Virus record (IMG/VR): IMGVR_UViG_3300010383_000008
Coordinates: 1-64,000 of that record
Source: a virus
Strand: one strand, 5' to 3'
DNA length: 64,000 nt
In this document: positions 9,257 to 55,676 of the stretch, piece by piece
Layout: every line of letters begins with the position of its first letter
Numbering within the stretch: the stretch's first letter is position 1
Position numbers and translations under genes: made by a program
Notes under the pieces: model-generated
Database searches by the model: none
The model's input: only the letters and a program-made list of their open reading frames with translations
Told to the model about the DNA's origin: nothing

Positions 9257-9259
9257 GCT

Positions 9260-11468: not shown

Positions 11469-11473
11469 TCGCC

Positions 11474-12745: not shown

Positions 12746-12930
12746 ACTATTTCGTCGTCAACCTGAAGGACCGCGCCGACAACCGCACCGTGCAGACAGT
12801 GTGCGTGATCGCCGCGCCCGACGCCGCGGCGGCATACCAGCGCTACCTGAAGCTGTCGGCAGGTGAGCCGAACCGGCATTACTTGTCGCTGGAAGCGGCG
12901 CCTGTCCCACTGGTGACGAGCGATGCCTGA
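12742..12930 (+). CDS. hypothetical protein, 62 aa
   Basis: ATGA overlap upstream. Confidence 0.5.
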   Translation: MNYFVVNLKDRADNRTVQTVCVIAAPDAAAAYQRYLKLSAGEPNRHYLSLEAAPVPLVTSDA

Positions 12931-13492: not shown

Positions 13493-13493
13493 C

Positions 13494-33550: not shown

Positions 33551-34783
33551 ATGGCCCTGAATCAGAACTACAACGTCGGCGTGCCGTCCAAGAAACTGGA
33601 CCCTTCGGCGCCCAAGGACACCAAGAGCCTGATGCGCCGTGCGGCAGCGTCACCGTTCGCCGGCGGCCTGCCGATCGCCGAAGCAATGGGCGCTGCCACC
33701 ACACAGGTGAACAAGAACATCGCCGCGACAACCGCCCCCGAGGCGGCGCCGGCTGGTGGCCCGGCGACGACCGCCGACAACATCAGTCAGGACAATCTGG
33801 CCGTCGCCAACGCGATGGGCGGCCGACTGGCGAACGGCGTGCGCCGCTATCAGATGGACGGGCGCAACGCCGTGGCCGGCTACGTCACGCGCGGCAAGGA
33901 CGGCTCGGTGGTGTTCACCGACGACGCCAACTACGCGGCGCGCAACAGCGCCGGCGGACTGCGTCGCGGCGAAATCCCGGACGAAGCGTATGTCCACACG
34001 CAAGGGCCACGCGCCGAGTTCGAATACGCCAAGTCCGGCTTGGAGCAGAAGGGGCTGCGCCGGCAGGACTTCCACGACCTGACGCCCGAGCAGACGCAGG
34101 CCGCGTTCGACTACGCCGGTGATGCCGCGTCCAAAGCCCCCAACGCCGATATCGCGCTGTCGAACCAGATCGATGCCAACATGCTGCGCGCGCACAAGTT
34201 CGATCAGGACCAGCGCGCGGCCGAAGCCGCCGCTTCGATCGACCCGCGCACGCAGATCGCCCTGTTCCGCGCGCAGACTGCCGCCGAGCGCAACACGATC
34301 GCGCAGGGCCAGCTGGAGGCAACCCGCGAGGGCGTGCGCCGGCAGGGCGCCGCCGAGGACCGCGCCGCGCAGAAGGACTTCTTCAGCCAGTACCAGGCGC
34401 TCAAAGCCAACGACCCCAAGAGCGCGGAGAACTACCTGTTCAACGCGATCCCGAACGACCCGAAGCAGTTCGACCAGTGGGCCGCCACGCCGGCAGGTCG
34501 TAGCGTGCTCAACACGTACATGACCGATTACCTGCAACCGCAGGCGCAGTCGTCGTTGTTCCCGCTCGAATGGGGGGACAGCCGCCAAGTTCCGCATCTC
34601 AACTACGGCAACTTGGACCTCGGCCCGAACGAAGACGGGTTCAAGGGCATCATCAACCCGGACGGCAACACCGACGAGTACCCCGCGCAGGGTCTCTTCG
34701 GCACGGACAATTACAACTCGATCAACCGGTTCTCCCCGGCTATCCTCCGCCGCCTGAAGCGTCTCAATACGGAAACCCAGTAA
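33551..34783 (+). CDS. internal virion protein, 410 aa
   Basis: Intact ORF; its TAA overlaps the ATG of the giant gene (TAATG). Confidence 0.6.
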   Translation: MALNQNYNVGVPSKKLDPSAPKDTKSLMRRAAASPFAGGLPIAEAMGAATTQVNKNIAATTAPEAAPAGGPATTADNISQDNLAVANAMGGRLANGVRRYQMDGRNAVAGYVTRGKDGSVVFTDDANYAARNSAGGLRRGEIPDEAYVHTQGPRAEFEYAKSGLEQKGLRRQDFHDLTPEQTQAAFDYAGDAASKAPNADIALSNQIDANMLRAHKFDQDQRAAEAAASIDPRTQIALFRAQTAAERNTIAQGQLEATREGVRRQGAAEDRAAQKDFFSQYQALKANDPKSAENYLFNAIPNDPKQFDQWAATPAGRSVLNTYMTDYLQPQAQSSLFPLEWGDSRQVPHLNYGNLDLGPNEDGFKGIINPDGNTDEYPAQGLFGTDNYNSINRFSPAILRRLKRLNTETQ

Positions 34784-37700
34784 TGGCCCGCAGCCTGCGT
34801 GATCTCCTGCTGGCGCGTTCTCCCGCAGTGCCGGCGGTAGCTCCGCAGCAGCCGGCCCCGCTCACCGGCGCGCAGATCGACGAACAGAACGCCGCTGCCT
34901 ACCGGCAGAATCTGGCGCAGACCTCGCCGTTCGTCTCCGGCCTCAAGGAAGGCACGACCAACCTCGAAGGGTCGGTTGAGGCACTCGCCGGCCTCGGGCA
35001 AGGCGCTGTCGGTGACGTGCAGGGCGGTCGGTCGCGGCTGCGCCGCGCAGCGACCACGCTCCAGCAGGCACAGGACTACAGCACGCCGGAGACCGCCGAC
35101 CTCGCCGCCGCCTACAAGAGCGGCAACCTGCTGCGCTACGCCGAGCACCAGATCGGCGCGCTGACCCCCGGCATCGCCGCCACGGTGGTCCCGGCAGCGG
35201 TCACGGGCGGCGCCGGCGCGCTGGTACAGGGCGGGCTGCGGCGACTGGCGTTTGGGGCCGCCGAGGATGTGGCCGGCGGCGTGGCGAAGAAGGCGGCGCA
35301 GAACACGCTCGGTCGCGTCATCGGCGAGCAGGTCGGCGCGATCGGCTCGGGCGCGGCGCAGATGGCCGGCACCACGGCCGGCGCGGTCGATCCCAACGCT
35401 TCGGACGAGCAGTTCCAGGCGCAGTCGCGCAAGGCGCTGGCGGGAGCTGGCGGGCTCGGCGCGCTGATGGCGCTCCCCGGCGTCGCCCTGCTGCATCGTT
35501 ACGGCGTGGGCGCCGGCGCGGAAGCGGCCATCGCCAAGCGGCTGGGCGCGCCGCTGTATAAGCGGGTGCTGCGCGAAGGCGCCGAACAGGCGGCGATCGG
35601 TGGCGGTACTGGCGCGGCGCTGGTTGCGGCCGAGCACGCCACCCACGACTGGATCACCGGACACCCGAGCGCAGCGCCGGCACTGCCGGACTACATCAAC
35701 GCACTGGCCGCCGGTTCGCTCGGCGGCGCGGTGTTCGGCGCCCCGGCCGGGCTCAAAGGCGCCCGGGGCAAGGGCTTTGCCGAGCGCGCGAGCGGGCTGC
35801 GCGCCACCTTGGAACAGCGGTTCAAGGACGTACAGGCCAAGCGCGTCAAGCCCGGCGAAGAGATTCCGCTGGACGGCGGCAAGTCCGCCACCGAGCACTT
35901 CGACGACAACCTGACCGCGCTGCGCGATGACGACATGCCGCTGAAGGGCAAGGCGTTCAACGTCAGCAAGGACAACCTCCTCAACGGCCCGGCCGCCTCG
36001 CTGGTCGACCCGGCGCGTCAGCGCGCGCGCGACGCGTACTTCGAAGAGCGCGGCAACACCGCTTTCGCCGGCATCAAGAGCCCGACCGAGAAGCTGGTCG
36101 CCTCGATGCTGGACGACGGGCAGTACTCGGCCGACGCGATCCCGGGCATCAAGGCGACAGCCAAGGCGATCCGCGTCGGCTGGGATAAGCTCAACCCCAA
36201 GGAGCTGAACGCGGTCAGCGAGTTTCACTCGCGCCTGCCGGAAGACAAGCGGCAGCTGTTCGCCAACGCCCTGACCACGGCCAACGACATCACCAGCCGC
36301 AGCGGCTACGCCGGCCTCAAGGACGCCTCGGAGATTCCGTCGCTTCGCAAGCAGTACATGACGGACGAGAACGGCCAGCCGCTGCTGCGTACTGACGAGA
36401 ACGGCCAGCAGGTCAAAATCCCGGTGTCCGAGGACGTTGGCAGCGGCAACAAGCGCACCAAGGCCAGCGGGCTCTCCGACGAGGTCGCCGACCCCATCGC
36501 CGACCCGGGCATGCGCGACCGCGCCGGCCTGTCCACGCAGGAGAAAGACGCCCCGCTCGGCTACGTCGACCCGGACACCTGGGCCAAGGCGCAGTACTTC
36601 AAGAAGCGCGGTGGCCCGGCGCGCGGCACGCCGGACGAAGAAAACGTCCGCATGGTGCGCTTCAACAAGGATGGCGAGTCCTACTCGGTCGACTTCAACA
36701 TGAAGCAGGCCGCGTCCTCGCTCGCCAAGAGCGAGGAAGGCAAGGCGTTGCTCAACAGCCAGGGCGGCCCCAGTCGCCGGGTCAAGGCCGTCATGGGCGT
36801 GCTGACTGAAGCACTGGACCGCGGGTCGCCGATCCATCGCGGCGACATCCGCGAAGGGCTGCGCGTATTCCCCGGTGAGGACGGCGTGCTCAACGCCAAG
36901 GAAGCGGCCTACGTCCAGAAGGCGATGGCCAAGCGCTACGAAGGCACCCCCGGTGTCATCGAGACCAAGGGCCGCGCCGAGCCGAAGTCCACGCTGGACC
37001 TGCCGCAAACCAACGAAGTGCAGACTGCTGAGGGCGACCTGGCCGCGCGGCAGGACGACCAGTACAAGCTCGGCCCGGACCCGAAGAAGGTCCGCGGCGA
37101 AGAGCGCGCGATCGAGACCACGGCGCGCAAGGCCGCCCAAGCGGCCGGCGTACCGACGCGCGTCAACGGCCGTGCCCGCCCGCCCGGCGATATCTACGAA
37201 CACCTGCTGCGCCGCGCCAAGGACACCAAGGAGCGCGGCATCGCGATGGCGGCCATCCGTCGGCTGTCCGAGACCGACCCGGCACTGGCTGAGCACATCA
37301 GCGAGGCGCATGACAAGCTCGACGCGTTCAAGGCACGACAGAAAAAGGCCGCTGCTGCAACGACCAAGCCGAAGGAAACCCTGAAAACCCTCGAAGCGGA
37401 GGTCCCAGTCGCCGAGAAGTACGCGACCAGCCCGCCGAAGGACTTCACGGTCGGCGAGGCGCGCCAGCGCGCCGCGCGCATGGACGAAATCTACGCCAAG
37501 GCGAAGGCCAAAGCCGCCGAACTCGGCACCGGGCACGCGGCCTATGGCCGCCTGGACGACCTGCTCTCGGTTGCCAAGACCGCGGCCGACGCGCTGCGTC
37601 ACGTCGCCGACCAGCAGGAAGCGGCCGAGAAGCATTCACCGGAGCAGTACAAGGCCGACAACGACCTCTACACCAACAACGCCTCCGGCGAGTCCAGCGC

Positions 37701-40700
37701 ATCGGTCGAAGCGATCAACCGCCTGCGCGACGAGAAAGCCGCCGGCCAGTCGCGGATGCTGGTCGACCGCGACGGTTCGGTGCGCCCGCTGTTCGGCGTC
37801 GACGCCGTGGACACCTTCGCCCGCCCCGGCCAGATCATCGTGCAGCGCGGCATCGGCAAGGAGCCGTGGACGGTCATCAGCGACGGCACCGGCAGCAAGG
37901 AGCTGGCCCAGGGCAAGCTCAACGCTGCGCGCCGCGCGCTGGAAGCTGAGCACGCCGACCTGATGGCCGACGCCGACAAGGACGTGCCCAAGGGTTCTGC
38001 CGAGTCCGAGCGCCGCGCCGCCGCTATTGCCATGGCGCGCGACCTCGGTATCAAAAACCCCGAGCACTTCGTCGACCTGGCGACAGAGACCTCTCTCGCC
38101 GAGAAAGATCATAACGCGGTCACTCGCGACCCCGTCACCGGCAAGGACTTCACTGCCAAACAGCTGATGGAACAGCTGGCGAGCGAAGGCAAGCCCGACC
38201 TCGGCGACGAGTTCTCGCGCCGTCGCGGCTACACGCCCGAAGAAATCGCGCGTTACCACGAGTACCAGCGCGCCGCCGCCGAGGCTATCCGCGACGCTGG
38301 CGAGGACAACGCCGCGCATGTACACGGAGTCGCCGACGGCTCGCTCGATATCCCTGCCCCGTTCCGTGACGACGGCAAGCCCCCGGTCCAGCGTTCGATC
38401 GAGAAGGTCAAGGCGTCCAAGGGCTACCAGCAGGTCGCTAAGCTGGTCGAGCGCGTCGTGCGCGGCGGCAACGACCGCGTCAAGGAGCGCCAGCTGGTCA
38501 ACCGGCTGTCCAAGGCGTTCGGCGTCGACGCGCTGCCGGTGGTTGAGCATCAGGGCGGCCCGGCGGGCAAGTACGACGGCAAGGTCATCAGCCTGCGCAG
38601 CGACCTGAAGGGCGCACAGCGCCTGAGCACCATGTTCCACGAGTTCGGCCACCACCTGGCCGAGTCCAAGTGGGCCGGCGCCGACGAGAAGACCAAGGCG
38701 GCGCTGGAAGCGGACTACCAGGCGTGGCTGAAGGCCAACGGCAAGAAGACCAACAGCTTCGAGGTGCGCGCCAGCCGCGCGCCGTTCTTCGTCAACGAGC
38801 GCATCCTCGATGCCCTCGGCGGCGAGCGCGCGGCCTCGATGAAGGAACTGCCGGCTGACAAGGTCGCCTACCTGCTCTCGCGCGACGAGTACTTCGCCGA
38901 CTCCATCGCCCGCGCGCTGGAGCAGCACGAAGGCGTGCAGGGGCTGGTCGGAAAGTTCTTCGCGAAGCTGGCGCAGACCCTCAAGCTCACGTATGATCTG
39001 CTCCGTGGAACCGACCCCAAGCTTGCGGATACCCCTGCCGCAATCAAGGAATGGGTCCACAGTCTGTGGTCTGCTCAGGACCCCGACCTTGCCGCCCCCG
39101 CCGCCAAGCGTGACGCCCCCGAGTTGCGTACGGCGGCGGGGGAGGCACCTCGCCCCGCTTTCAATACCCCGTCGGACACCTCGACCCTGCTCTCGCCGGA
39201 AGACCGCGGCGTGCTGGCGTCCTTCATGCTGCGCAAGGGCACCATGGCGCAGCTGCTCGAAGGCGCCTCGCCGGAGATGGCCCGCCGGCTCCTGAGCTTC
39301 GGTACCCAGCTCGACGCGGCCGTCAACCGCGGCTTCGCGCTGTGGGCGACGGGTAAGCTCAAGCTCGTGGACAAGCGCACGCTGGCCGTGCTGCACGAGC
39401 TGCGCGACGTGGTCAAGAAGACCTTCGGCTTCGTCACCGACAAGCAGGTCGCCGAGCGCGTGCTCGCCGATCTGAAGGCTGGGCGCTACGATCCGAAGGA
39501 AAGCACCCGTCGCGTGCTCGAAAACGAAGCGCGCGCGGGCTTCCGCACCCGGATCAACGCCGGCGACACCAACGCCAAGATCGAAATGGCGATCCACAAG
39601 GCGGTCACCAAGACCACCCATCTGGTGCACGACAAACTCGGCCCGATCTACGAGCGTGTGTTCAACGATCTGGATCACCGTATCCGCGCCGCCAACGTCC
39701 CGGCGCTGCGCCAGCTGGCCGACCTCGTGCACCGTCAGACCGGTGAGCGCGGCGAAGGCGAGACCCTGACACAGTCGATCGCCCGCAACCGGGCCAAGCT
39801 CTGGGATCAGGCCACCAAGCTCACCGAGGGCTTGAGCCTGCGTGACCAGGCCAAGCTGATCAAGGCGCTGCGCACCAAGACCACGCTCGACGGTCCGCTG
39901 GAGAAGCGCCGGCAGACGATCGCCAAGTTCATGGGCGACATGCACCATTACCTGGAGATGGCTGGCGTCGAAGTCGGCCACATCAAGGACTACTGGCCGG
40001 TGGTGGTCGACCCGCGCAAAATCCAGAACCGCGAGGCGGACTTCCGCGCGATGCTCTCGGACCCGAAGCTCGAAGCGGGCATGCGCGCCTACTTCAAGTC
40101 CAAGGGCTGGGACACCGCGAAGATGACCCAGAAGGAGATGGTCGACGCCATGTACCGCATGGCAGCCAGCGAATTCGACTACTCGCAGAACGGCATCTCC
40201 TTCGCCGACGGGCTGCTGCCCGGCGGCCGGGAGTTCCGCACCCGCGTGTCGGAGTTCATCTACCGTACCGGCGACGCCGAGCTGATCAACAAGTTCGCCA
40301 AGTTCCAGTCCGGCAACCTGGAGCAGACGCTGATCCCGTACATCACCCACGCGGTGCGGCGCGCCGAGTCGCAGCGCCGGCTGGGCGCGATGAAGGACGA
40401 CGTGAATGGCTCGCCGTTGGAGCAGCTGCTCGACAAGGCCAAGCAGCAGGGCGCCGGCGAAGAGCAGATTCAGCTGGCCAAGGACTACGTCAACGCCGCG
40501 CTGGGTAGCTACGGCACCGGTCCGAACCCGTTCTTCCAGAAGGCGCTGGGCGCGTTCGACCGGGTGTTCGACACCAAGCTCGGCGACATGAATTCGGCGC
40601 AGTACCGCAAGCTGTCCAACGCGATCATCGCCTACCAGAACCTGCGCGTGCTGGGGCTGGGCCTGTTCGGCAACCTGGTCGACCCGCTGGGCGTGTGGGT

Positions 40701-41691
40701 GCGCTCGTCCTCGGCCAGCCAGACCTGGACCGGCTACAAGGCCGCGATGAAGGCCGCCTTCGCCAAGGGCGACAACCATCTGGCGGACATGGCCCACGTC
40801 GTGGGCGCCGTGGAGCGTCATGCGCTGGGCGAGGCACTGGCGTACAACTACGGCGGCACCGGCGACGATCTCAATTCGCTCTCGATGCGGGTCAACCGCG
40901 CATTGTTCCGTGTCAACGGCATGGAGTCGATCACCCGCTTCGCGCGCCTGGCCGCGACCGAGACCGCGAACAAGTTCCTGCTGCGCCACGCCAACGACCC
41001 GACTGCGCACTCGGCACGCTACCTCGACGAGCTGGGCCTGAAGCCCTCCGACATCAAGGAAGACCCCGAACACCCGGGCTACGTCAAGCTGAACGCGAAG
41101 GTCGAGAAGGCGATCTACCAGTTCGTCGACGAGTCCGTGCTGCGCCCGGTCGCGACCCAGCGCCCGCTGTGGCATAACGACCCGCACCTCGCCGTGTTGG
41201 CGCAGTACAAGGGCTACCTGTACTCGTTCTACAACACCGTCGTCCAGCGCATGCTGCACGAGGCGCATAACGGCAACTTCCGCGGGCTCATGCCGATCGT
41301 GGGGTACATGGGCGTGACCATGGCGGCCGAGATGATCCGCGAGATGGTGCAGTACGGCACCGGCGGCAACCCGCGGCGCAAGGACTGGGACGCGGCCGAT
41401 TACCTGGCCCTGTCGGCGGACCGTTCGGGGCTGCTCGGCCCGAAACTGGGCATCCTCGAAGACTCTCTGACCGACGTGGAGCGTGGTAACATCCCCGGTC
41501 AGAGCATCACCGGGCCGGCTGTTTCGCAGGCCGGCGAGCTGCTCAAGACGGTGGCGGGGCGCCGCTCGTTCGACACTACTGCGGTCCATGCCCTGCCCGG
41601 ACAGTCCATTTACAAAGGATGGCTTTCGCATGGCGACACCACAGGGGACGCAGCACAGCCCGGAGACGCACGAGCTCTCGCCGGCACCTGA
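34783..41691 (+). CDS. giant virion-associated multidomain protein, 2302 aa, with an HExxH zincin motif
   Basis: Start moved to ATG 34783 (MARSLRDLL). The first ~300 aa contain Gly/Ala-rich hydrophobic segments. MFHEFGHHLAE lies mid-protein. The position is that of podovirus internal/ejection proteins. Confidence 0.75.
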   Translation: MARSLRDLLLARSPAVPAVAPQQPAPLTGAQIDEQNAAAYRQNLAQTSPFVSGLKEGTTNLEGSVEALAGLGQGAVGDVQGGRSRLRRAATTLQQAQDYSTPETADLAAAYKSGNLLRYAEHQIGALTPGIAATVVPAAVTGGAGALVQGGLRRLAFGAAEDVAGGVAKKAAQNTLGRVIGEQVGAIGSGAAQMAGTTAGAVDPNASDEQFQAQSRKALAGAGGLGALMALPGVALLHRYGVGAGAEAAIAKRLGAPLYKRVLREGAEQAAIGGGTGAALVAAEHATHDWITGHPSAAPALPDYINALAAGSLGGAVFGAPAGLKGARGKGFAERASGLRATLEQRFKDVQAKRVKPGEEIPLDGGKSATEHFDDNLTALRDDDMPLKGKAFNVSKDNLLNGPAASLVDPARQRARDAYFEERGNTAFAGIKSPTEKLVASMLDDGQYSADAIPGIKATAKAIRVGWDKLNPKELNAVSEFHSRLPEDKRQLFANALTTANDITSRSGYAGLKDASEIPSLRKQYMTDENGQPLLRTDENGQQVKIPVSEDVGSGNKRTKASGLSDEVADPIADPGMRDRAGLSTQEKDAPLGYVDPDTWAKAQYFKKRGGPARGTPDEENVRMVRFNKDGESYSVDFNMKQAASSLAKSEEGKALLNSQGGPSRRVKAVMGVLTEALDRGSPIHRGDIREGLRVFPGEDGVLNAKEAAYVQKAMAKRYEGTPGVIETKGRAEPKSTLDLPQTNEVQTAEGDLAARQDDQYKLGPDPKKVRGEERAIETTARKAAQAAGVPTRVNGRARPPGDIYEHLLRRAKDTKERGIAMAAIRRLSETDPALAEHISEAHDKLDAFKARQKKAAAATTKPKETLKTLEAEVPVAEKYATSPPKDFTVGEARQRAARMDEIYAKAKAKAAELGTGHAAYGRLDDLLSVAKTAADALRHVADQQEAAEKHSPEQYKADNDLYTNNASGESSASVEAINRLRDEKAAGQSRMLVDRDGSVRPLFGVDAVDTFARPGQIIVQRGIGKEPWTVISDGTGSKELAQGKLNAARRALEAEHADLMADADKDVPKGSAESERRAAAIAMARDLGIKNPEHFVDLATETSLAEKDHNAVTRDPVTGKDFTAKQLMEQLASEGKPDLGDEFSRRRGYTPEEIARYHEYQRAAAEAIRDAGEDNAAHVHGVADGSLDIPAPFRDDGKPPVQRSIEKVKASKGYQQVAKLVERVVRGGNDRVKERQLVNRLSKAFGVDALPVVEHQGGPAGKYDGKVISLRSDLKGAQRLSTMFHEFGHHLAESKWAGADEKTKAALEADYQAWLKANGKKTNSFEVRASRAPFFVNERILDALGGERAASMKELPADKVAYLLSRDEYFADSIARALEQHEGVQGLVGKFFAKLAQTLKLTYDLLRGTDPKLADTPAAIKEWVHSLWSAQDPDLAAPAAKRDAPELRTAAGEAPRPAFNTPSDTSTLLSPEDRGVLASFMLRKGTMAQLLEGASPEMARRLLSFGTQLDAAVNRGFALWATGKLKLVDKRTLAVLHELRDVVKKTFGFVTDKQVAERVLADLKAGRYDPKESTRRVLENEARAGFRTRINAGDTNAKIEMAIHKAVTKTTHLVHDKLGPIYERVFNDLDHRIRAANVPALRQLADLVHRQTGERGEGETLTQSIARNRAKLWDQATKLTEGLSLRDQAKLIKALRTKTTLDGPLEKRRQTIAKFMGDMHHYLEMAGVEVGHIKDYWPVVVDPRKIQNREADFRAMLSDPKLEAGMRAYFKSKGWDTAKMTQKEMVDAMYRMAASEFDYSQNGISFADGLLPGGREFRTRVSEFIYRTGDAELINKFAKFQSGNLEQTLIPYITHAVRRAESQRRLGAMKDDVNGSPLEQLLDKAKQQGAGEEQIQLAKDYVNAALGSYGTGPNPFFQKALGAFDRVFDTKLGDMNSAQYRKLSNAIIAYQNLRVLGLGLFGNLVDPLGVWVRSSSASQTWTGYKAAMKAAFAKGDNHLADMAHVVGAVERHALGEALAYNYGGTGDDLNSLSMRVNRALFRVNGMESITRFARLAATETANKFLLRHANDPTAHSARYLDELGLKPSDIKEDPEHPGYVKLNAKVEKAIYQFVDESVLRPVATQRPLWHNDPHLAVLAQYKGYLYSFYNTVVQRMLHEAHNGNFRGLMPIVGYMGVTMAAEMIREMVQYGTGGNPRRKDWDAADYLALSADRSGLLGPKLGILEDSLTDVERGNIPGQSITGPAVSQAGELLKTVAGRRSFDTTAVHALPGQSIYKGWLSHGDTTGDAAQPGDARALAGT

Positions 41692-42615: not shown

Positions 42616-43017
42616 TCAGTCGATCGCTCCGTAGATGGCGGCACCTTCGGGGTGCGTTGCAGCGTAGTCGCGCAGCCAGTAGTACAGGTCGTGCATGTGG
42701 TCGCTGGGGTACTGCCAAGTCAGGGCGTTGAGTGCGAAGAGCGAGGCGATGATACCGGCGGCATCGGCCGAGACCGTACCTTCGTAGCCGTTGCTGGGAA
42801 TCTCGATGCGGTACGACCGGGTATCGCGCGGGGCGATGTACAGCCCGCCGTTGCTTAGGTCGTAAAAGTCCCAGAAGCCGCCACCGTAGTCCCCGGTCAT
42901 GGCGCGCATCTTGGTGTACGCATTGGCTTCGAACAGCAGGTACAGCGCGCCATCGGGGAATTTCTTCGGGAGAAACGCCAGGCGCTCCGCGCTAGGCACT
43001 ACGCTCGCGGTTATCAT
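42616..43017 (-). CDS. klcA: antirestriction protein, KlcA/ArdB family
   Basis: ..YGGGFWDFYDLSNGGLYIAP..EIPSNGYEGTVSADAAGIIASLFALN..YYWLRDYAATHPEGAAIYGAID closely parallels plasmid KlcA. Confidence 0.85.
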   Translation of the reverse strand: MITASVVPSAERLAFLPKKFPDGALYLLFEANAYTKMRAMTGDYGGGFWDFYDLSNGGLYIAPRDTRSYRIEIPSNGYEGTVSADAAGIIASLFALNALTWQYPSDHMHDLYYWLRDYAATHPEGAAIYGAID

Positions 43018-47470: not shown

Positions 47471-49453
47471 TTAAGACTTGTCGTAAAAGGCGGCGACTTT
47501 GACGTCGGCATTGAGCGGCACTCCAGCGGCCCACGGTTCAGGCGTGGACATGATGACCTGGACGCGGCGCGCCAGTTCCTCGACCCGCGCCTTGGCGATG
47601 ATGAGGCCCACTTCGTCGTGGGTGGACATGACGATGCGCATGTCCGGGAATTCATCCTGCATGTGCAGCATCTGTTGCCCCAGCAGCACCCGCGACAGCG
47701 CCTGGATGATGTTCTCGGTGATCATCCCGCCCCACAACCGCACCAGACCGTTACGACTGTCGTAGATCAGTGTGCCGTCTTCGTCCTGCCGCAAGTTGGG
47801 GTAGAAGATGTAGCCGCCGTTGGGCAGGTGGATGTAGCCGCCGCGACGGTGCCCCTCGAAGATGATCGGGCCGTCTTCGATCTCGCGCATGCCGATGAAG
47901 GCCAGCTTGGCGAGCCGTTCGTGCACCCCGTGCTGGGCGTGGATCAGGTGGTTGGTCCGACGCCATGCGCTCAGATGTTCGGTGGTTTCCTCCAACGTCT
48001 GGTACACCGGCGGCCCGAACTGGCCCACACGGAACATGTAGTTGATCTTCGGCGCGCCGGCGCCATAGCCAGCAGACAATTCCAGCACCTTGCCGACGAA
48101 GCGTTCGTCCGGGTCTTTCTTGGCGTCGATCTGGCGATGGTAGATGCCGCCGGCGGCGTAGCAATAGACGTCCGGGCCTTCCTTGCGGTCATAGCGGGCG
48201 AACACTTCGAGCTTGTCGAACTGCTTGGCCTTCCACGCATTCATGCGCGCTTCGATCTGGCTGGCATCGGCGATGCACATCATGGTGCCCGGGGGCGCCA
48301 GCAACGCCTTGCGAATCTCCACACCCGGGCCGCGGCGCGGCGGGTTCTGCCAGTTGCAGCCGTCGCCGCCGGACCAGCGCATCGTGCGTGCGCCGTGGTA
48401 GTTCAGGTAGATCGGCGTCGGATAGTCCGCCCGCTTCAGGAGCTTGCCCGCCCGCGACTCGACGATGTTGGACTTGGCCATGAGACGGCCTTCCACCAGG
48501 TCCCGCACCAGTTCGCTGGGGTGGTCGAGCAGTTCCTTGAATTCCAGATCGTTCTTGGCGAACGCATACGCCGGCTGACCGGTGCGCGTAGAGATTTTCT
48601 GCGGCGGCTCGACGCCGGCCGCTTCCAGATGCATGGCGAACTTGTCCGCCGAGCCCAGCTCCTTCATGACCAGCTGGTTGCGGGTCAGCTGTGGCTTTTT
48701 ATAGGTCTTGCCCTTGGCCTCGTACGCGCGGTACTTGGCGTCCTGTGCGGCCAGCTGCTGCTCCAGTGTGTAGGTCATGGGCGCAGCGAGGCGATCGAGG
48801 ATGCCCTTCTTGCGCTCCAGCTCGGACAGGTACAGCGCTTCCAGCCGTTTACCATCGAGCAGCATGGTCGGCTCGGCATACATCCGTACCGTGATGTCGA
48901 TGAGCTTGAGCTCTTCCTCCGGCACGATCCGGGCCAAGCCTTCGTAGACACTGATGGTGTCCTCGACGTCGTCGCCGTTATACAGCCGCAGGTGCGCCAG
49001 CTCTTCTGGCGAGAAGTCAGCAAGGCGCCTGCCCTTGACGTTCTCAAGGGCCGCCTTGTGCTCTTTGCCTTTGAGTCCCATGCGCTTGGCGACCGCGTCC
49101 AGACTGGCCGGGCTGTCGACGCCGAAAGTAAAACGGGACATGCCCATGGTGTCCAACCAAAAACAGGGAAAGACCCCGAAGTGGTGGGTCAGGATCAGGC
49201 CGTCGAAGTTGGTGTGGTGGGCAAGACAGGCCGTGATCGACCAGTCAAGTGTGCGCAGACCTTGGTAAATCTCGTCGTAGCCGACCCACACCTGTGGGCG
49301 GCCCTTGGTGCCAACTACTTTGAGCCCCAAGGTCTGCGCTTCGAACCGCTCGTCCCGGATGTAATCCGTGGTGTCGAGCTTGCCGAGACCGTACTCGTCC
49401 GAGTAGAAGGTCTCGAAGTCCAGGCAGGCGATCTGCTGGAACGGTAGTGCCAT
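47471..49453 (-). CDS. DNA polymerase, family A (Pol I-like) with an N-terminal 3'-5' exonuclease-like region
   Basis: CLDFETFY at the N-terminus, ..RFVGKVLELSAGYGAG.. and ..IVMSTHDEVGLI.. polymerase motifs. 660 aa. Confidence 0.85.
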   Translation of the reverse strand: MALPFQQIACLDFETFYSDEYGLGKLDTTDYIRDERFEAQTLGLKVVGTKGRPQVWVGYDEIYQGLRTLDWSITACLAHHTNFDGLILTHHFGVFPCFWLDTMGMSRFTFGVDSPASLDAVAKRMGLKGKEHKAALENVKGRRLADFSPEELAHLRLYNGDDVEDTISVYEGLARIVPEEELKLIDITVRMYAEPTMLLDGKRLEALYLSELERKKGILDRLAAPMTYTLEQQLAAQDAKYRAYEAKGKTYKKPQLTRNQLVMKELGSADKFAMHLEAAGVEPPQKISTRTGQPAYAFAKNDLEFKELLDHPSELVRDLVEGRLMAKSNIVESRAGKLLKRADYPTPIYLNYHGARTMRWSGGDGCNWQNPPRRGPGVEIRKALLAPPGTMMCIADASQIEARMNAWKAKQFDKLEVFARYDRKEGPDVYCYAAGGIYHRQIDAKKDPDERFVGKVLELSAGYGAGAPKINYMFRVGQFGPPVYQTLEETTEHLSAWRRTNHLIHAQHGVHERLAKLAFIGMREIEDGPIIFEGHRRGGYIHLPNGGYIFYPNLRQDEDGTLIYDSRNGLVRLWGGMITENIIQALSRVLLGQQMLHMQDEFPDMRIVMSTHDEVGLIIAKARVEELARRVQVIMSTPEPWAAGVPLNADVKVAAFYDKS

Positions 49454-49905: not shown

Positions 49906-50484
49906 TTACTCCAGTCCGAGGGCGCGGAGCGTGTTGATGCAGCGGATCGCCTGCATCTTGGCGTCGTCCAGCGCGTGGTGGGGGTGGTAGGCGTGCGGGT
50001 CGATCCCGGCGCTGATGACCTCTTCGGTCACCCCGTGGGTACGCCCCAGTGCGATCAGGGTGCGAAGATCACGGACCTGGTTGTAGCGCCAGGGCACCAC
50101 GACGCCGGCCGCCTTGCACAACGAGCCAAGCGCGACGGCGTCGAACTGCGGCCCCTGGAACCAGAACTCGACCGGTTCGGCCGGGTCGGTCAGCTGGGCC
50201 TGCACGAAGTCGTTGAGCCCTTCGAGGGCGGGCTTGACCGCCACGCGCTGCTCGAACGCATCGGCCGTGGCCGGGTCGGTGGCCGCCTGCTGCATCCACC
50301 AGGTGGACGTACCGAAGCTGATATGGCGACCATACGCGTCCTGCTGGTCGAAGCCATCGAGAGCGGCGTAATACTCCGCCCCCAGCTTGCCGGTCTGGCT
50401 GTCAAACAGCACGGCGCCGATGGAGAGCACCAAGGCGTTCGGCTCCAATGACAGGGATTCGATATCGATGGAAAAGCGTTTCAC
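49906..50484 (-). CDS. DEDDh-type 3'-5' exonuclease (DnaQ/RNase T-like)
   Basis: FSIDIESLS.., ..FDAVAL.., ..HHALDDAKMQ motifs. GTG start in a GTGA overlap. Confidence 0.8.
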   Translation of the reverse strand: MKRFSIDIESLSLEPNALVLSIGAVLFDSQTGKLGAEYYAALDGFDQQDAYGRHISFGTSTWWMQQAATDPATADAFEQRVAVKPALEGLNDFVQAQLTDPAEPVEFWFQGPQFDAVALGSLCKAAGVVVPWRYNQVRDLRTLIALGRTHGVTEEVISAGIDPHAYHPHHALDDAKMQAIRCINTLRALGLE

Positions 50485-50641: not shown

Positions 50642-50672
50642 AAAAAAACCCGCCCGGCTTGCGCCGGGCAGG
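50642..50672 (-). terminator. rho-independent terminator
   Basis: On the minus strand, CTGCCCGGC gcaa GCCGGGCGG followed by TTTTTTT. Confidence 0.75.
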
Positions 50673-50792
50673 TCCGTGTGGGCCGGCAGGCGGGGCTGGT
50701 TACCCGCCGTTGGCGCTGCGACGACATCTAGGGGGAAGAAGGAAGACCCCGTCGCGCCCACCCGCGTGGTGGGACGCTGCCGGAGTCGAACC

Positions 50793-51260
50793 TTACACCA
50801 CCCGGGCGGTGACCACCTTGGTGCCGCGCACGCCGATCTCGACGATCAGCGCGCCGAAGCCGGCGTTCGAGCGGGCAGCCGACAGCGAGCTGTAGGACGG
50901 CTTCTCGAAGGTGCGGCCGTTGAACACGGCGTAACGCACGTAGGTCGCGCTCTCGCCGTAGCCGCCGCCGTTGCGCAGCTTCACGGTGCGGGCGCCCGGG
51001 TTGTACTCCAGCTCGAACGAGCCGAAGTAGTTGCCCTTGCGGGTGCTGGCGTTGTCACGCGCCTCGGAGGCCGAGCGGTACACCTTGCTGCCCAGGCAGA
51101 ACGGCGCGTCGGCGGCGTTGTACAGGTTGACGCCGAGCACCTTGGTCTCGGACGCCATGCCAGCGCGCACGATGCGCTCCAGGCTGGTGTGATCCAGGCC
51201 CAGGTGCGACACGCCCATGGTGTTGCCGTTGTCGAGGATGACGGAAACGATCTTGCTCAT
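50793..51260 (-). CDS. hypothetical protein, 155 aa
   Basis: AAGGGGT RBS. Last gene before the terminator, downstream of the GATase gene. Confidence 0.6.
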   Translation of the reverse strand: MSKIVSVILDNGNTMGVSHLGLDHTSLERIVRAGMASETKVLGVNLYNAADAPFCLGSKVYRSASEARDNASTRKGNYFGSFELEYNPGARTVKLRNGGGYGESATYVRYAVFNGRTFEKPSYSSLSAARSNAGFGALIVEIGVRGTKVVTARVV

Positions 51261-51325
51261 CGGGATACCCCTTACTGTTTGAAAAGAAAATGTCCGGACG
51301 GACAGGAAACCGATACTACGTGCGC

Positions 51326-52486
51326 TCAGTGCACGGTCGTACCGGACGCAGCGGCCGACGCGTCAGCCGCAGTGTTCTTGGTCTCCGGCGCGGGGAGCAC
51401 CGGAGTGGTTTCGGGAGTAGCTGCCGGAGCAGCTGCCGGAGCAGCTGCCGGAGCAGCCGCGGCTTTCGGTGCGACGAACGGCGTCGCTTCGCGCAGGAAC
51501 ACCCGCAGCTCGGCTTCGTTCGCCAGGACGTCGCCGACGATGTTCCAGTCGCCGTCGATCTTGTGGTCCGGGCCGCCCGTCTTCACCATCGCTGCATCCG
51601 TGGCTTCGTACACGTACTTCTTGTCCCAGCACAGCGTGTTCTTGCTGTCGGCCGGGACGTACGACTGGAACCGCTCGGCCCAGATCAGATGCTGGCCGTC
51701 GACCACGATCGCGATCGGGGTCGGGGTCTTCAGGCCGACGCTCCACTTGCAGTCGAACAGCGGGCCTTTGGCGCCAAACGAACGGGTGATCACCGTGTCC
51801 AGCGACGGCGTGCGGCCCGTCGAGCCTCCCGTCGCGCCGCCTTGGCCGCCCGTCGCCCCGCCGCGCGAGCCGGAGCCGTAGCTCCAACCGTATCCGCCGT
51901 AGAGGTCGTCGTTGTCGCGGATGGCTTTGCCGGACGTCGTCGAAAAGTACCCCCGAAAGCTGCCGTTGGAGTACCAACAGCCCTCGTACCATTGGCCCTG
52001 CTTCTCGTTGCAGATGACGAACTCGCCGTTTTCGAACAGGAACGCGACCTTCTCGGTGCCAGCGAAGCCCTCGATGATCGGTCGAATGGTCTTGATCGTC
52101 TCGTAGTCGAGCGTCTTGACCATGTCTTCGGCGAACTGGCGCGTGTCGGAACGCTCCTTGTCGCCGGAGCAGTGCGTGTAGTTCAGGCACGGGCCGTTGT
52201 GCATCAGTGCGCCGTGGTCGATCGCGAACGGGTGGCAGTTGGCCGCGTCCTTGGCGCCCTTGGTGGAGATGCGGAAGTGCACCAGCGCCTTGGTGTCGGT
52301 GGTCACGTCCTGGGAGTAGTGCTTGAAGAACTCGTCGAAGGCGAAGAAGCCCTTCTTGACGACGATCTTGCCCGTGGCCGGGTCAAGGTACGCGTAGCCC
52401 GCGCCGTCCTTGTTGGCCTGGAACGAGTTGTACAGGTGCTCCTTGGTCACCCACTTGCCTGCGGGCTTGACGATTGCGATACACAT
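51326..52486 (-). CDS. class-II (Ntn) glutamine amidotransferase-like protein with a C-terminal extension, 386 aa
   Basis: Start moved to ATG 52486 so that Cys is residue 2 (MCIAIVKPAG..), with ..VHFRISTKG..NCHPF..HNG.. GGGAGAA RBS. A Gly-rich linker, an extra ~120-aa domain and an Ala/Pro tail follow. Confidence 0.7.
   Translation of the reverse strand: MCIAIVKPAGKWVTKEHLYNSFQANKDGAGYAYLDPATGKIVVKKGFFAFDEFFKHYSQDVTTDTKALVHFRISTKGAKDAANCHPFAIDHGALMHNGPCLNYTHCSGDKERSDTRQFAEDMVKTLDYETIKTIRPIIEGFAGTEKVAFLFENGEFVICNEKQGQWYEGCWYSNGSFRGYFSTTSGKAIRDNDDLYGGYGWSYGSGSRGGATGGQGGATGGSTGRTPSLDTVITRSFGAKGPLFDCKWSVGLKTPTPIAIVVDGQHLIWAERFQSYVPADSKNTLCWDKKYVYEATDAAMVKTGGPDHKIDGDWNIVGDVLANEAELRVFLREATPFVAPKAAAAPAAAPAAAPAATPETTPVLPAPETKNTAADASAAASGTTVH
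51421..51456. repeat. perfect 12-bp tandem repeat, 3 copies (CTGCCGGAGCAG)
   Basis: Encodes the AAPAAAPAAAPA tail of the GATase-like protein. Confidence 0.9.
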
Positions 52487-52512
52487 CAGGTTGTTCTCCC
52501 TTCTTCTTGAGT

Positions 52513-54279
52513 TTAAGCCACGAGTTCCTGGAGCGGGCGCGCCACGACCGCTTCGGTACTCTCTTCGACGCCGATACGCGCCGCCAGGTTGGGGTAGGCC
52601 GCCACGTTGCGCGCCAACCACTTGCGGAACTGCTCGCCGATGTCGCTGGCGAACACGTCCGTATCCTTCTCCAGCCCGCAGACGAACGCCATGCCGGCCA
52701 CGCAGTACTCCACGCAGGACATGAAGCCTTCGTAACGGATGTTCGAGCCGAAGATACGGACCTCGATCAGGCTGCTGCTGCGCACGTTGACCGGCCGGTA
52801 CTTACCGCCCTGCCGCAGCCACGACAATGCCGACCCCGCGAAGCGGTCGCCCGCCATGTAGTCGCGCATGTACTCGGTGGTGAACTTGCCGAAGCCGCCG
52901 GCGGCGGCGTTCTTGTCCTTCGCCTCGAACGCCTTCAGGTCGCCCGCGTCGGTGTCGCTCAGGCCACTGCCTTCGGGGCTGTGCCCGTAGATCGCCTTGC
53001 GCCCGGAAATGAAGCGCGACAGCGACGAAGCGTTGTTGATGAAGGCCACGAAACGCACGACCTGGTTGGGCGCCTTGTCCGAGGTGTCCATGTTGACGTG
53101 GATGCCGGCACGCGCACGGTGACGCCAGCCTTCGGCCCCGCCCTGCACGAGCTTTTCCAGCAGCCAGCGCCAGTGGGCGTCGGGGGCCTGGTAGCCTTCA
53201 TACAGCGTCAACGGCTCGGAGACGATCTCGACACCACCGGTGATGCCCGAGAGCGAGGAATCGTTCTCGACCAGGAACGGACGGCCGCCGATGAAACGGC
53301 CGCGCTCATCGACGAAGCGGTTGAGGAACTTCTGGAGCTGGCCGGTGCTCTTGAAGCCGATCTCCAGCTCCACGCCGATGCAACCGCGGTAGCTCGACTG
53401 GTCGCGGTCGCGCCACTCGCGGCGGGCGCCGTGATAGCCCGCCACCGCGCCACGGCCCATTCGAACCCAGGTGCTCTGCTCTTCGTCGTAGAAGATCGCA
53501 CCCAGCGCGAGGTTGTGCCGCTTCCACGTCTGCTCTCCGGTGTCGAGCGTGACCCACTCGACCGCGTCGCGCAGTACCAGCGTTCCCGACACCGGATCGC
53601 GGACGATGTCCGGGCTGTCGGCCAACGACGGGTGCAGGCGCTGCATGCGGCCGTCGTCGTTGACGACGACCTGGAGGCTCGTCGACGCTGGCATTTCCAG
53701 GGTGGTGTGCGGGCAGGTGATGAATTGATCACGCCCGTAAAACCCGAGCGGGGCGTCTTCGCGCGCTGCCCACAGCCGGCTACCGAACTGCCGTGCGAAG
53801 GCGTCGGCCTTCTTGGGGTCGTGCCGGAGCCATGCTTGCACCGTGTCCAGCTGCGCCTGCGTCTGCAACCGCGTGAAGAAGTAGCGGTATGCATCACGGA
53901 TGCGCGCCGAGCGCTTGCTGAAATACGCCACATGCCGGGCCAGCCGCGCCAGGTTGCGACCGGGTTTGATCGACGTGAACAGCCGCGCGCTGCGCAGCAC
54001 CTGCAACAGCAGTGCGCGGGCCTCGGCGTCGTCTTCGGTGCCGATGCGGGCGTCGAGCAGCCCGTTGAGCGTGGCCCGTGCCGTATCGCGCAGTTGCGCC
54101 TTGCGCAGCGTGTCCGCGCAACGCTCTTCGATCTCCGATGGCGTGTAACCGCCGTCCTTCAGTCGCTCGGCATAGCGTTGATGCCACTCTTCCGTCGACC
54201 CGTAGCTGTCGCTGAGTAGCGCGGCGTCGAGAACTTCCGCCATCTCGATGATGGGCCGGGCTTTTTTCTTCGTGTTCAC
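52513..54279 (-). CDS. putative amidoligase (glutamine-synthetase-like COOH-NH2 ligase fold), 588 aa
   Basis: The core pattern GVELEIGF.., ..VENDSSLSGITGGVEIVSEPL.., ..AGIHVNMD.., ..YRPVNVRSSSLIEVRIFGS matches my recollection of Amidoligase_2-type proteins. ATGA-coupled to the SNF2 helicase. Confidence 0.6.
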   Translation of the reverse strand: MNTKKKARPIIEMAEVLDAALLSDSYGSTEEWHQRYAERLKDGGYTPSEIEERCADTLRKAQLRDTARATLNGLLDARIGTEDDAEARALLLQVLRSARLFTSIKPGRNLARLARHVAYFSKRSARIRDAYRYFFTRLQTQAQLDTVQAWLRHDPKKADAFARQFGSRLWAAREDAPLGFYGRDQFITCPHTTLEMPASTSLQVVVNDDGRMQRLHPSLADSPDIVRDPVSGTLVLRDAVEWVTLDTGEQTWKRHNLALGAIFYDEEQSTWVRMGRGAVAGYHGARREWRDRDQSSYRGCIGVELEIGFKSTGQLQKFLNRFVDERGRFIGGRPFLVENDSSLSGITGGVEIVSEPLTLYEGYQAPDAHWRWLLEKLVQGGAEGWRHRARAGIHVNMDTSDKAPNQVVRFVAFINNASSLSRFISGRKAIYGHSPEGSGLSDTDAGDLKAFEAKDKNAAAGGFGKFTTEYMRDYMAGDRFAGSALSWLRQGGKYRPVNVRSSSLIEVRIFGSNIRYEGFMSCVEYCVAGMAFVCGLEKDTDVFASDIGEQFRKWLARNVAAYPNLAARIGVEESTEAVVARPLQELVA

Positions 54280-55676
54280 ACCTTCCTCCTTCGCTGTGAG
54301 GCCACCACAAGCTCAAGAAAATCATTCATGTTGACCGTCTTTGCATCGAGCCTGCCGTACACAAGCTCTTCGACGGTGCTGTTTGCCTGTACCAGTACGG
54401 TGTTGGTTACCTTGTCTTGCGCGCCGCGGTAAATGCGGTGAATGGCCTGCTTGAGCAGGTCAGCTTCGTAGAACGGCGAGAGGATGATGCACGCCTCGCC
54501 CCGGGTGAGGGTCAGGCCGTGTGCACCGGTCCGCGGGTGCAGCAGTACCGTCTGGTACATGCCGTTCTGGAAGTTGTCGACGATGCGCGCACGATCGCGG
54601 TCGCTCACGCTACCGTCGATGACCGCGAAGGGCACGTCGCGTTTGGTCAGCAGCTTGGCCATCTCTTCGCGCTGATGGAACCAGTTGAAGAACACGACCG
54701 AATGGCGGTACTTGCTGATCAGGTCGTAAGCCAGCTCGTAGCGCTGGGTGTCGACCAGTGCGTAACTGCGTTCCTCGGCGCCGTTGTACACCGCGCCCGA
54801 GGCGATCTGGAGCAGTTTCTGGCGCAGGCTGGCCGCGTGCACCGCACTGACCCGTTCGCCTTCGATCTGCGCGACCATGTTGACCGCGAACTGCTCGTAA
54901 ATCTTCTGCGCCTTGGTGTTCAGGTCGAAGCTGTAGCGCGAGACATGATTCGGCGGGACATGCGTCATCACGTCTTCGAACGCATGCCGGATCGAGATGT
55001 CCGCGATCAGCGAGAACACCGCCTCGGCTGCGCCGGGCTTGTCGTTCCACTTGACCATGTTGGGCATCGGCCCGATCTGCTCGGACTGCTGCACCGAATT
55101 GCGGAAGCGGAAGAAGTTCGGACCCAGCCGTTTGCCGCCATCCATCAGCAGAATCTGATGCCACAGCTCGGTCACTGAATTGGGGTTAGGCGTACCGGTC
55201 AAGAGGTTGCGCCGGCCGAAGCGGTGCGTGATCAACCGCATGGCCTTGGAGCGCTGACTGGTCGCGTGCTTGAATGCGGTCGATTCGTCGATGATCAGCT
55301 TGTCGAACCCGCGCAGCAGCTTCGGGTTCTTGGCGATCGGCACGGCCGCGTCGATATTGGTGATCACCACCGGCGTGTCGTAGGCGAACGCTTCCTCGCG
55401 GTGCGCCGCGTCGGCGATCGCGTAGGACAGGCCGGGGAAGTAGGCGTCGATCTCGTTGCCCCAGGCGCTGCGCATCAGCGTCTTGGGGCAGACCACGAGG
55501 GTACGCCCGGTTTCGCCGCGGTTGTAGGCGTCGTTCAAGATCAACAGATGGGACGTCGTCTTGCCGGTGCCCGGGTCGGACATGTCGAAGATTAGCGGCG
55601 ACTCGGCGCCGAAAGCGCGTGTCGCTTCTTGGTGCGGCCAAGGCTTGACCTTGACGGGGAGTGTTCTTGTGGTCAC
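54276..55676 (-). CDS. SNF2-family helicase/ATPase
   Basis: DPGTGKT (motif I), LIIDESTAFKH (motif II), LLTGTPNPNS (motif III), and a C-terminal helicase domain ..GAHGLTLTRG... GTG start. Confidence 0.85.
   Translation of the reverse strand: MTTRTLPVKVKPWPHQEATRAFGAESPLIFDMSDPGTGKTTSHLLILNDAYNRGETGRTLVVCPKTLMRSAWGNEIDAYFPGLSYAIADAAHREEAFAYDTPVVITNIDAAVPIAKNPKLLRGFDKLIIDESTAFKHATSQRSKAMRLITHRFGRRNLLTGTPNPNSVTELWHQILLMDGGKRLGPNFFRFRNSVQQSEQIGPMPNMVKWNDKPGAAEAVFSLIADISIRHAFEDVMTHVPPNHVSRYSFDLNTKAQKIYEQFAVNMVAQIEGERVSAVHAASLRQKLLQIASGAVYNGAEERSYALVDTQRYELAYDLISKYRHSVVFFNWFHQREEMAKLLTKRDVPFAVIDGSVSDRDRARIVDNFQNGMYQTVLLHPRTGAHGLTLTRGEACIILSPFYEADLLKQAIHRIYRGAQDKVTNTVLVQANSTVEELVYGRLDAKTVNMNDFLELVVASQRRRKV

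Follow-up and report, generated by a model that had tools for sequence, protein, structure and literature searches.

What does a phage do with a predicted carboxylate-amine ligase and an amidotransferase-fold protein that are encoded back to back, directly behind a helicase gene? We addressed this question for a locus of three minus-strand genes in a 64,000-nucleotide stretch of viral DNA, positions 1 to 64,000 of IMG/VR record IMGVR_UViG_3300010383_000008. This stretch, in the following called the window, comprises most of an approximately 65-kb phage genome and showed no DNA-level similarity to cultured phages in a set of 50,697 phage records. An earlier note on this DNA, prepared from the letters alone, had already described the three genes, and the list of open reading frames (ORFs) of the window agrees with it. 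The 588-aa protein is a glutamine synthetase (GS)-fold amidoligase over its C-terminal approximately 300 residues, and the 386-aa protein is an enzyme of the class-II amidotransferase fold with a cysteine as N-terminal nucleophile (Cys-Ntn). With moderate confidence, we read the unit as a module of two enzymes acting on amide bonds, accompanied by a small conserved protein, in which a gamma-glutamyl or glutamine-type amide would be ligated and then hydrolysed in a cycle. Most of the uncertainty in this reading lies in the chemistry, not in the identity of the proteins. The three genes are:

52513-54279, minus strand: ligase gene, 588 aa (ORF with conserved homologues)
51326-52486, minus strand: Ntn gene, 386 aa (ATG TGT start at 52486)
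50793-51260, minus strand: gene of the 155-aa protein, third member of the unit (conserved homologues, third-position GC (GC3) of 0.96)

The genome has a GC content of 63-65%, and the GC3 bias of genuine genes is seen in all three, with 0.87 for the 588-aa ORF and 0.78 for the open frame holding the 386-aa gene, while the value of the 155-aa ORF is the highest among the called genes. Homologues were found in 14, 24 and 11 sequence clusters for the 588-aa, 386-aa and 155-aa proteins, respectively. The ligase is composed of three parts, as delimited with an AlphaFold (AF2) model and its predicted local distance difference test (pLDDT) values:

53785-54279, minus strand: aa 1-165, basic all-helical N-terminal domain, pI 9.8 (AF2 helices 3-163, pLDDT ~85-94)
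53410-53784, minus strand: aa 166-290, beta-rich middle domain with a YH..R.W motif (AF2 strands 167-273)
52513-53409, minus strand: aa 291-588 and stop, GS-fold amidoligase core (invariant residues, Amidoligase_2 matches, Foldseek)

The amidoligase identity, which the earlier note had proposed, is supported by four independent lines of evidence: Pfam matches of the homologues, transitive homology, the predicted fold and matches in a library of predicted viral structures. Searched alone, the 588-aa protein gave no usable match in Pfam, NCBIfam or PDB sequence searches, and blastn and tblastn against the 50,697 phage records yielded no real match, only spurious 50-nt ones to Gordonia. A word-indexed search of 5.8 billion proteins returned the 14 clusters, none of them named, and in 12 of these 14 homologues a sub-threshold match to Amidoligase_2 (PF12224) was present (best E value 0.002). 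When the ligase profile was run against 1.84 billion representatives, i.e. sequence clusters at 50% identity, 1,015 proteins were collected at E<=1e-3. Nine of 42 sampled distant relatives reach E<=1e-3 against the Pfam model (best 7e-8), so that standard annotation misses much of the ligase family. The model of the 588-aa protein has a mean pLDDT of 86, and its top 37 Foldseek matches in the PDB are all gamma-GCS, GS, YbdK, Dop, PafA or GmaS (E 5e-4 to 0.4). In the viral structure library, 48 proteins matched at E<=1e-3, with 7e-14 as the best value; where these carry a name it is mostly amidoligase, as for the protein of Pseudomonas phage tf. A search for related loci with the ligase alignment returned two viral loci, and an exact-sequence look-up of the protein in a contig index had no result.

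The motifs on which the earlier note had based its call (GVELEIGF, D..S..GGVEIVSEP, GIHVNMD and Y..VN......IEVRIF) indeed form the invariant core of the alignment, where IGVELEIGF, ENDSSLSGITGGVEIVSEP, AGIHVNMD and KYRPVNVRSSSLIEVRIF are near-invariant among the homologues. Fourteen residues are invariant over the 42 diverse relatives, among them E304, E306, E338, D340, S342, E351, H394, R427, E506 and R508. Judged from the order of the motifs, these acidic, His and Arg residues would correspond to the set that a GS-fold ligase needs for its two-metal ATP site. Upstream of the core, Y282 is invariant and H283, R287 and W289 are invariant or near-invariant. The middle domain carries CxxC...WCxxC...FxC in distant relatives, whereas C189 alone is retained in the window clade, which is why we regard it as a degenerate zinc ribbon; among its viral-structure matches, one bears the name 'LIM domain containing protein'. 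The basic N-terminal domain is clade-specific, as only the closest approximately 20 representatives match profile positions below ~165.

The second protein of the pair consists of an enzymatic domain and three further segments, in agreement with the Gly-rich linker, the extra domain of approximately 120 aa and the Ala/Pro tail described before, which are all recovered in the pLDDT profile of its model:

51947-52486, minus strand: aa 1-180, class-II (Cys-Ntn) glutamine-amidotransferase-fold domain (invariant residues, GATase_6 3e-4, Foldseek)
51812-51946, minus strand: aa 181-225, Gly/Ser/Tyr-rich disordered linker (pLDDT 30-41)
51467-51811, minus strand: aa 226-340, folded beta-rich C-terminal domain (pLDDT 87-96; conserved W and Y)
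51326-51466, minus strand: aa 341-386 and stop, Ala/Pro-rich flexible tail ending ...D-AS...T-V-H (pLDDT <50)

Although the mechanical ORF of this gene reaches back to 52621, its true start codon is that of the ATG TGT at 52486, which lies 24 nt past the ligase stop and is preceded by the ribosome-binding site GGGAGAA. All 25 aligned Ntn sequences begin with Met-Cys, as do the Ntn proteins of three more distant lineages (L007, L011 and L012). Start codons, ribosome-binding site and invariant Met-Cys thus uphold the MCIAIV start with its catalytic N-terminal Cys. Invariant residues are C2 (the first after Met removal), N25, G28, R72, T75, N97, G98, S113 and D114, and the conserved blocks read HFR72..T75.G, NCHPF, HN97G98 and S113-D114. 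In a profile alignment, HFR..T.G/HNG of the Ntn protein matches HTR..T.G/HNG of the GlmS glutaminase domain (chain residues 69-105). In GlmS and PurF, Arg73 binds the alpha-carboxylate and Asp123 the alpha-amino group of glutamine, while Asn98-Gly99 forms the oxyanion hole. From the S-D-[ST] motif, D114 would be the equivalent of GlmS Asp123. The N-terminal domain is modelled with a pLDDT mostly >85, and the Foldseek matches in the PDB are GlmS/GFAT, PurF and EgtC (30 at E<=1e-3, best 4e-6); NCBIfam purF and glmS matches are weak and far under their cut-offs. The class-II/Ntn identity suggested for this gene is therefore sustained by the invariant residues, the GlmS alignment and the fold. As the equivalents of the glutamine site are invariant, the expected substrate is either glutamine or a gamma-glutamyl amide whose amino-acid end is free.

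A fused synthase (acceptor) domain, as in GlmS, PurF, AsnB and GltB, was not found in the Ntn protein, and its C-terminal domain (aa 226-340) had no match in Pfam or the PDB, including a separate profile search of the PDB. The tail ends in [TA][VIT]H in 13 of the 25 aligned sequences, and the terminal His is missing in some lineages (P0023, P0024, P0030-33). A correlation of this His with the ligase N-terminal domain was considered and dropped, with P0012/P0024, which are probably from the same contig, as an apparent counter-example.

The third protein, basic with a pI of 9.7, was labelled an orphan in the earlier note, a description that does not hold given its 11 homologous clusters. In our alignments its mean column identity exceeds that of the other two proteins (70% over 11 homologues, compared to 52% for the ligase and 35% for the Ntn protein), and K40, K59, K75 and K120 are invariant. 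Its gene follows the Ntn gene in each long contig of the window clade (L001/L005, and L004 with hhalign E 5e-53), and a possible homologue stands after the Ntn gene in the more distant L006 (hhalign E 4e-4). In L007 this position is taken by a 141-aa protein, for which homology was rejected. No match was obtained for the 155-aa protein in Pfam, PHROG, NCBIfam or the PDB. Two similar segments, ..LGSKVYRSASEARDNAS.. and ..EKPSYSSLSAARSNAG.., suggest an internal duplication, while a reading as a YegP/DUF1508-like tandem repeat was unsupported in a comparison with a manually entered E. coli YegP sequence. Just past the stop codon of this gene, at window positions 50765-50795 on the minus strand, lies the tRNA-like 3' piece GGTTCGACTCCGGCAGCGTCCCACCA, which resembles a T-arm, the 3' strand of the acceptor and a CCA end. 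It was rejected as a tRNA, as ARAGORN found none and the best Rfam match was tRNA-Sec at E 0.97. An integrase was not detected in the window, and the fragment may be due to chance or may be the vestige of an attachment site.

The unit is framed by the following elements, of which the helicase gene is context outside the pair:

54276-55676, minus strand: SNF2-family helicase gene (Pfam SNF2-rel_dom 7.9e-23 and Helicase_C 5e-12; phrog_62 DNA helicase 1e-90)
51291-51304, minus strand: small hairpin and T-run in the spacer that separates the Ntn and 155-aa genes (5-bp stem, then TTTTCTTTTC; weak consensus match)
50646-50675, minus strand: intrinsic terminator ending the unit (13-bp stem, 9 GC pairs, 4-nt loop, T7 run)

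The SNF2 gene ends in ...AAG GTG TGA, and the GTG start of the ligase overlaps this TGA stop, with an AGGAGG just upstream. The two genes are translationally coupled via this GTGA overlap; the coupling assumed earlier is thus real, although not through the ATGA that had been named. The terminator at the end of the unit was likewise confirmed by its GC-rich stem and T-run. It separates the unit from the family-A DNA polymerase (PolA, 47471-49453) and an Rv2179c-like exonuclease (49906-50484), which both lie beyond it. Of the co-transcription claimed with helicase, polymerase and nucleases, the part concerning the SNF2 helicase stands, shown by the coupling for that gene only, while the polymerase and the exonuclease are downstream of a strong terminator. 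Within the unit, the 62-nt spacer ahead of the 155-aa gene contains the hairpin at 51291-51304, which is possibly an attenuator of read-through or an element separating the expression of this highly codon-biased gene.

The arrangement is conserved in relatives. The ligase gene is followed by the Ntn gene in all eight lineages with DNA available downstream of the ligase (window, L001/L005, L004, L006, L007, L010, L011 and L012). In three of these, the short contigs L010, L011 and L012 from far more distant family members, an Ntn gene starting with MC is found directly downstream. The gene series primase ... SNF2 - ligase - Ntn - small protein - (exonuclease) - PolA is also found in L001 and L004, with ligases 46-47% identical to that of the window, and in L007 (~25%). 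The ligase-to-PolA part is retained in L006, which is cut at its upstream end, and the primase-to-ligase part in L013, which is cut just past the ligase, within a truncated downstream gene. The 4-nt overlap of the SNF2 and ligase genes is present in four of five lineages (window, L001, L004 and L007), with a 4-nt gap instead in L013. The replication arm of L004 also encodes a 442-aa TROVE (Ro60-like) domain protein (6554-7882), which is absent from the window.

Gene pairs of this type have been recognized before. The earlier note had pointed to a comparative prediction of the amidoligase and glutamine amidotransferase (GAT)-like neighbourhood by Iyer, Aravind and co-workers, and two later papers cite Iyer et al. 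2009 accordingly for phiEco32 and other phages, with cell-wall modification and superinfection exclusion as the prediction they relate for phiEco32 (PMC10580990, PMC11318856). An Amidoligase_2 and class-II GATase-like pair is annotated in LUZ24-like Pseudomonas phages (PMC3517423, PMC3890496) and in the OM43 phages MEP401/402 (PMC10580990), and also in mycobacteriophage Marvin and its relatives, Xanthomonas phage DES1 and Stenotrophomonas phage StenR_269. UFV-P2, a LUZ24-like phage, has an extra COOH-NH2_lig protein and an ATP-grasp enzyme (PMC3890496), and in Firmicute prophages the amidoligase is paired with a gamma-glutamyl cyclotransferase (PMC11318856). Expanded systems are found in two cultured phages:

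7374-13821 of Xanthomonas phage DES1 (L008): gamma-glutamyl cyclotransferase, short Ntn protein, ATP-grasp ligase, amidoligase and a second, longer amidotransferase
5199-13357 of Stenotrophomonas phage StenR_269 (L009): as in DES1, plus a protein annotated as glutamine synthetase

Like the pairs of tf, UFV-P2, phiEco32, Marvin, MEP401/402, DES1 and StenR_269, the locus of the window places a GS-fold amidoligase beside a Cys-Ntn protein in an early or replication region, and its Ntn domain shares 37-38% identity with the DES1 and MEP401 ones. In contrast to these pairs, the ligase is 588 aa long, carries the basic helical N-terminal domain and the degenerate zinc ribbon and falls under the Pfam threshold, the Ntn protein has a novel folded C-terminal domain and a tail, and the conserved basic 155-aa protein is added. 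In addition, the window has none of the companions known from the LUZ24-like phages, DES1 or StenR_269, namely an ATP-grasp enzyme, a COOH-NH2_lig protein, a second GATase and a gamma-glutamyl cyclotransferase. In its architecture the locus is thus a variant of a known, experimentally uncharacterised phage pair, distinguished by its minimal gene set, the SNF2 coupling, the additional domains and the conserved third protein.

For the chemistry, known pairs of a gamma-glutamyl ligase and a gamma-glutamyl amidohydrolase offer a comparison. GS-fold ligases activate a carboxylate with ATP as an acyl-phosphate, which is then attacked by an amine. In EgtA/EgtC (ergothioneine biosynthesis) and PuuA/PuuD (putrescine catabolism), the partner of a GS-fold ligase is a hydrolase of an amidotransferase fold, which cleaves glutamate off a gamma-glutamyl amide. 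The structural matches of the Ntn protein include EgtC, a class-II Ntn domain that stands alone, and gamma-GCS-type ligases match the ligase. However, identities are ~10-18%, and EgtB/D/E or the Puu oxidase and dehydrogenase are absent, so that both systems may serve as working analogies for the cycle, not as families to which the locus belongs.

From these comparisons we infer how the two enzymes would work, in which direction the cycle would run and what kind of substrate it would use. The 588-aa protein would act as an ATP-dependent carboxylate-amine ligase that converts a carboxylate to an acyl-phosphate at a metal site built from E304/E306, E351, H394, E506 and R508. Attack of an amine on this intermediate would then yield a gamma-glutamyl-type amide on the amine-bearing substrate. 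In the Ntn protein, removal of the initiator Met would expose the Cys as N-terminal nucleophile, Arg72 would hold the alpha-carboxylate and Asp114 the alpha-amino group of a free glutamyl moiety, and Asn97-Gly98 would stabilize the oxyanion, so that the enzyme could remove or edit the gamma-glutamyl-type amide. Such a ligate-then-hydrolyse cycle appears best supported because cyclotransferases occur in the sister systems, the Ntn domain stands alone as in EgtC, and the glutamyl-binding residues are retained. Candidate substrates are a small amine (e.g. a polyamine), a protein (the 155-aa partner or the Ntn tail), the cell envelope and DNA.

Several points weigh against this interpretation. The 588-aa protein itself scores 12.7 bits against Amidoligase_2 (E 0.12), below the Pfam gathering score of 22 bits, and hhalign gave no significant alignment between the ligase family and either the amidoligase of StenR_269 or the corresponding protein of DES1. 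GATase_6 reaches 21.2 bits on the Ntn domain (E 3e-4), below its gathering score of 27. Moreover, the catalytic residues were assigned by motif order and not by structural superposition, and the intact glutamine-binding residues are equally compatible with an ammonia-donating glutaminase. Finally, the searchable literature contained no experimentally defined substrate for any phage amidoligase or pair member, and the earlier note knew of none either. As support for its calls, the note had named Amidoligase_2/GS-like and GATase_2/Ntn profile matches; the GS-like fold and the homology stood up, and the direct Amidoligase_2 and GATase scores are both under the gathering score. Because the ligase misses its threshold, we call it a divergent branch of the Amidoligase_2 superfamily and not a plain member.

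The first of the rival explanations, and the main one as regards the chemistry, is a split glutamine-dependent amidotransferase, in which the Ntn protein would be a glutaminase feeding ammonia to the ligase, and an activated carboxylate would be turned into a carboxamide. Asparagine synthetase B amidates in this manner in cis, and MurT/GatD does so in trans. The invariant glutamine-binding residues R72, N97, G98 and D114 fit this explanation, the best structural matches GlmS and PurF are true amidotransferases, two genes that are always adjacent and in the same order could well encode a complex, and the extra C-terminal domain of the Ntn protein could serve for docking. However, known class-II amidotransferases have their synthase fused in cis, and standalone domains such as EgtC are hydrolases. 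Elsewhere, in phages and in prophages (PMC11318856), the partner of the amidoligase also includes, or is replaced by, a gamma-glutamyl cyclotransferase, which is unable to donate ammonia. We therefore treat ammonia transfer between the two proteins as a tentative alternative, unlikely but with a real chance of being correct.

Less probable is the modification of a protein by an isopeptide bond or a C-terminal amide, with the Ntn protein as the de-modifying hydrolase, in analogy to PafA/Dop. Candidate targets would be the 155-aa protein, the Ntn protein's own ...TVH tail, the replisome or a host protein. PafA and Dop share the carboxylate-amine ligase fold and are among the structural matches of the ligase, at marginal E values of ~8e-3 to 5e-2. 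Both act on a protein-borne glutamyl carboxylate, and their deamidase/depupylase is GS-fold, not Ntn. Further points in favour are the 155-aa protein, which is the most conserved of the three, always co-located and equipped with the four invariant Lys residues, the flexible Ntn tail with its conserved terminal His, and the zinc-ribbon/LIM-like middle domain, which is of a macromolecule-binding kind. On the other hand, the invariant R72 and D114 point to a free glutamyl alpha-amino-acid moiety and not to a protein-embedded residue, and the terminal His is lost in the lineages listed above. The more distant L007 has no clear 155-aa homologue, and neither a ubiquitin- or Pup-like tag gene nor a second GS-fold gene, as would be present in pupylation, was detected in the window. 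We regard this explanation as improbable.

A modification of the host envelope (peptidoglycan or a surface receptor) that excludes superinfecting phages, or, as a variant, an auxiliary role in host nitrogen or glutamine metabolism, is given only a slight chance. The envelope function is the prediction cited in PMC10580990 and PMC11318856, and the auxiliary-metabolic role has been put forward for a Planctomycete phage (PMC10945688). In the directed evolution of a Pseudomonas phage, missense mutations arose independently in both the amidoligase and the amidotransferase genes, which hints at a role in host interaction and indicates selection on both genes during host adaptation (PMC11450229); we count this finding in favour of the two-enzyme cycle as well. 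Nevertheless, the three proteins of the window contain no signal peptide, membrane segment or cell-wall Pfam domain, the close linkage to replication genes would be left unexplained, and the proteins are far from host GS and GlmS, with which they share the fold alone.

DNA was considered as a substrate as well, and genes of base modification were sought in the window. Pfam scans of approximately 80 window ORFs detected no deoxynucleoside monophosphate (dNMP) kinase, thymidylate synthase, dUMP/dCMP hydroxymethylase, 5-hydroxymethyldeoxyuridine (5-hmdU) DNA kinase, aGPT-Pplase or TET/JBP, and no TGT/DpdA, QueC, methyltransferase, glycosyltransferase, ATP-grasp or gamma-glutamyl cyclotransferase; COOH-NH2_lig and a second GATase were not found in the window either. 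The defining enzymes of the thymidine hypermodification clusters of M6, ViI, PhiW-14 and SP10 (5-HMUDK, aGPT-Pplase, PLP and radical-SAM enzymes) were undetected in the window, and the precomputed Pfam annotation of the relatives contained no gene of a base-hypermodification pathway. The locus is thus without every known entry point into base hypermodification. The dNMP kinase reported for this phage in the earlier note could not be confirmed, since no Pfam kinase match was obtained and Walker-A-like motifs in coding-type (high GC3) frames are confined to the primase-helicase, the SNF2 protein and one frame of the structural module. Instead, the replication arm contains an antirestriction gene:

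42616-43017, minus strand: ArdA-type antirestriction protein (Pfam Antirestrict E 2e-31)

It is the first called gene of the minus-strand arm carrying the replication genes, and it provides the phage with a protein-based defence against type I restriction. No positive evidence points to DNA as the substrate; DNA or a DNA-bound protein is favoured only by the location of the pair within the replication module, its coupling to SNF2 and the basic character of two domains, and both ArdA and the lack of any enzyme that would supply a base speak against DNA. There is a similarly slight chance that the SNF2-coupled trio is a replication-associated covalent modification system of an undescribed kind, in which a DNA base, or a protein bound to DNA (e.g. 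the 155-aa protein), would be gamma-glutamylated or amidated and the zinc-ribbon-derived and basic N-terminal domains would target the ligase to the replisome or DNA. Least probable of all is the DNA base hypermodification suggested in the earlier note, i.e. an amino-acid-type adduct added to or trimmed from a nucleobase after replication to shield the DNA from restriction, as the location in the replication arm, the SNF2 coupling in four of five lineages, the basic character of both the ligase N-terminal domain and the 155-aa partner, and the co-occurrence of amidoligase/amidotransferase genes of unassigned role with some thymidine-hypermodification clusters in viral contigs (PMC8989533) are countered by the lack of any detected gene supplying a modifiable base in the window or its relatives, by the ArdA protein, and by the same gene pair in many unrelated phage types outside replication modules.

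The ligate-then-hydrolyse reading of the pair bears on a system that is widespread, with carriers among LUZ24-like therapeutic Pseudomonas phages, mycobacteriophages, marine phages and crAss-like phages. As a minimal version with two enzymes and one small protein, the locus of the window offers a cleaner start for reconstitution than versions of five to six genes. Since the phage is uncultivated, the locus alone does not make the substrate question testable; DES1 and StenR_269, as cultured carriers of the expanded system, would be tractable models for the family.

Besides ArdA, the genes identified in the window encode a P22-type portal, a T4-type large terminase, a capsid protein and a beta-helix tailspike, and also a DUF5906/VapE primase-helicase, a PD-(D/E)XK nuclease, the SNF2 helicase, the exonuclease and PolA. 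Two products of the plus strand are:

34570-41691, plus strand: 2,373-aa ORF in the structural arm (GC3 0.87)
14010-15377, plus strand: 455-aa right-handed beta-helix/pectate-lyase-like protein, extended at its N-terminus by an endosialidase-type segment; gene located upstream of that for the terminase

The 2,373-aa ORF may encode an ejection or tail protein, and the 455-aa beta-helix protein is probably a tailspike depolymerase.

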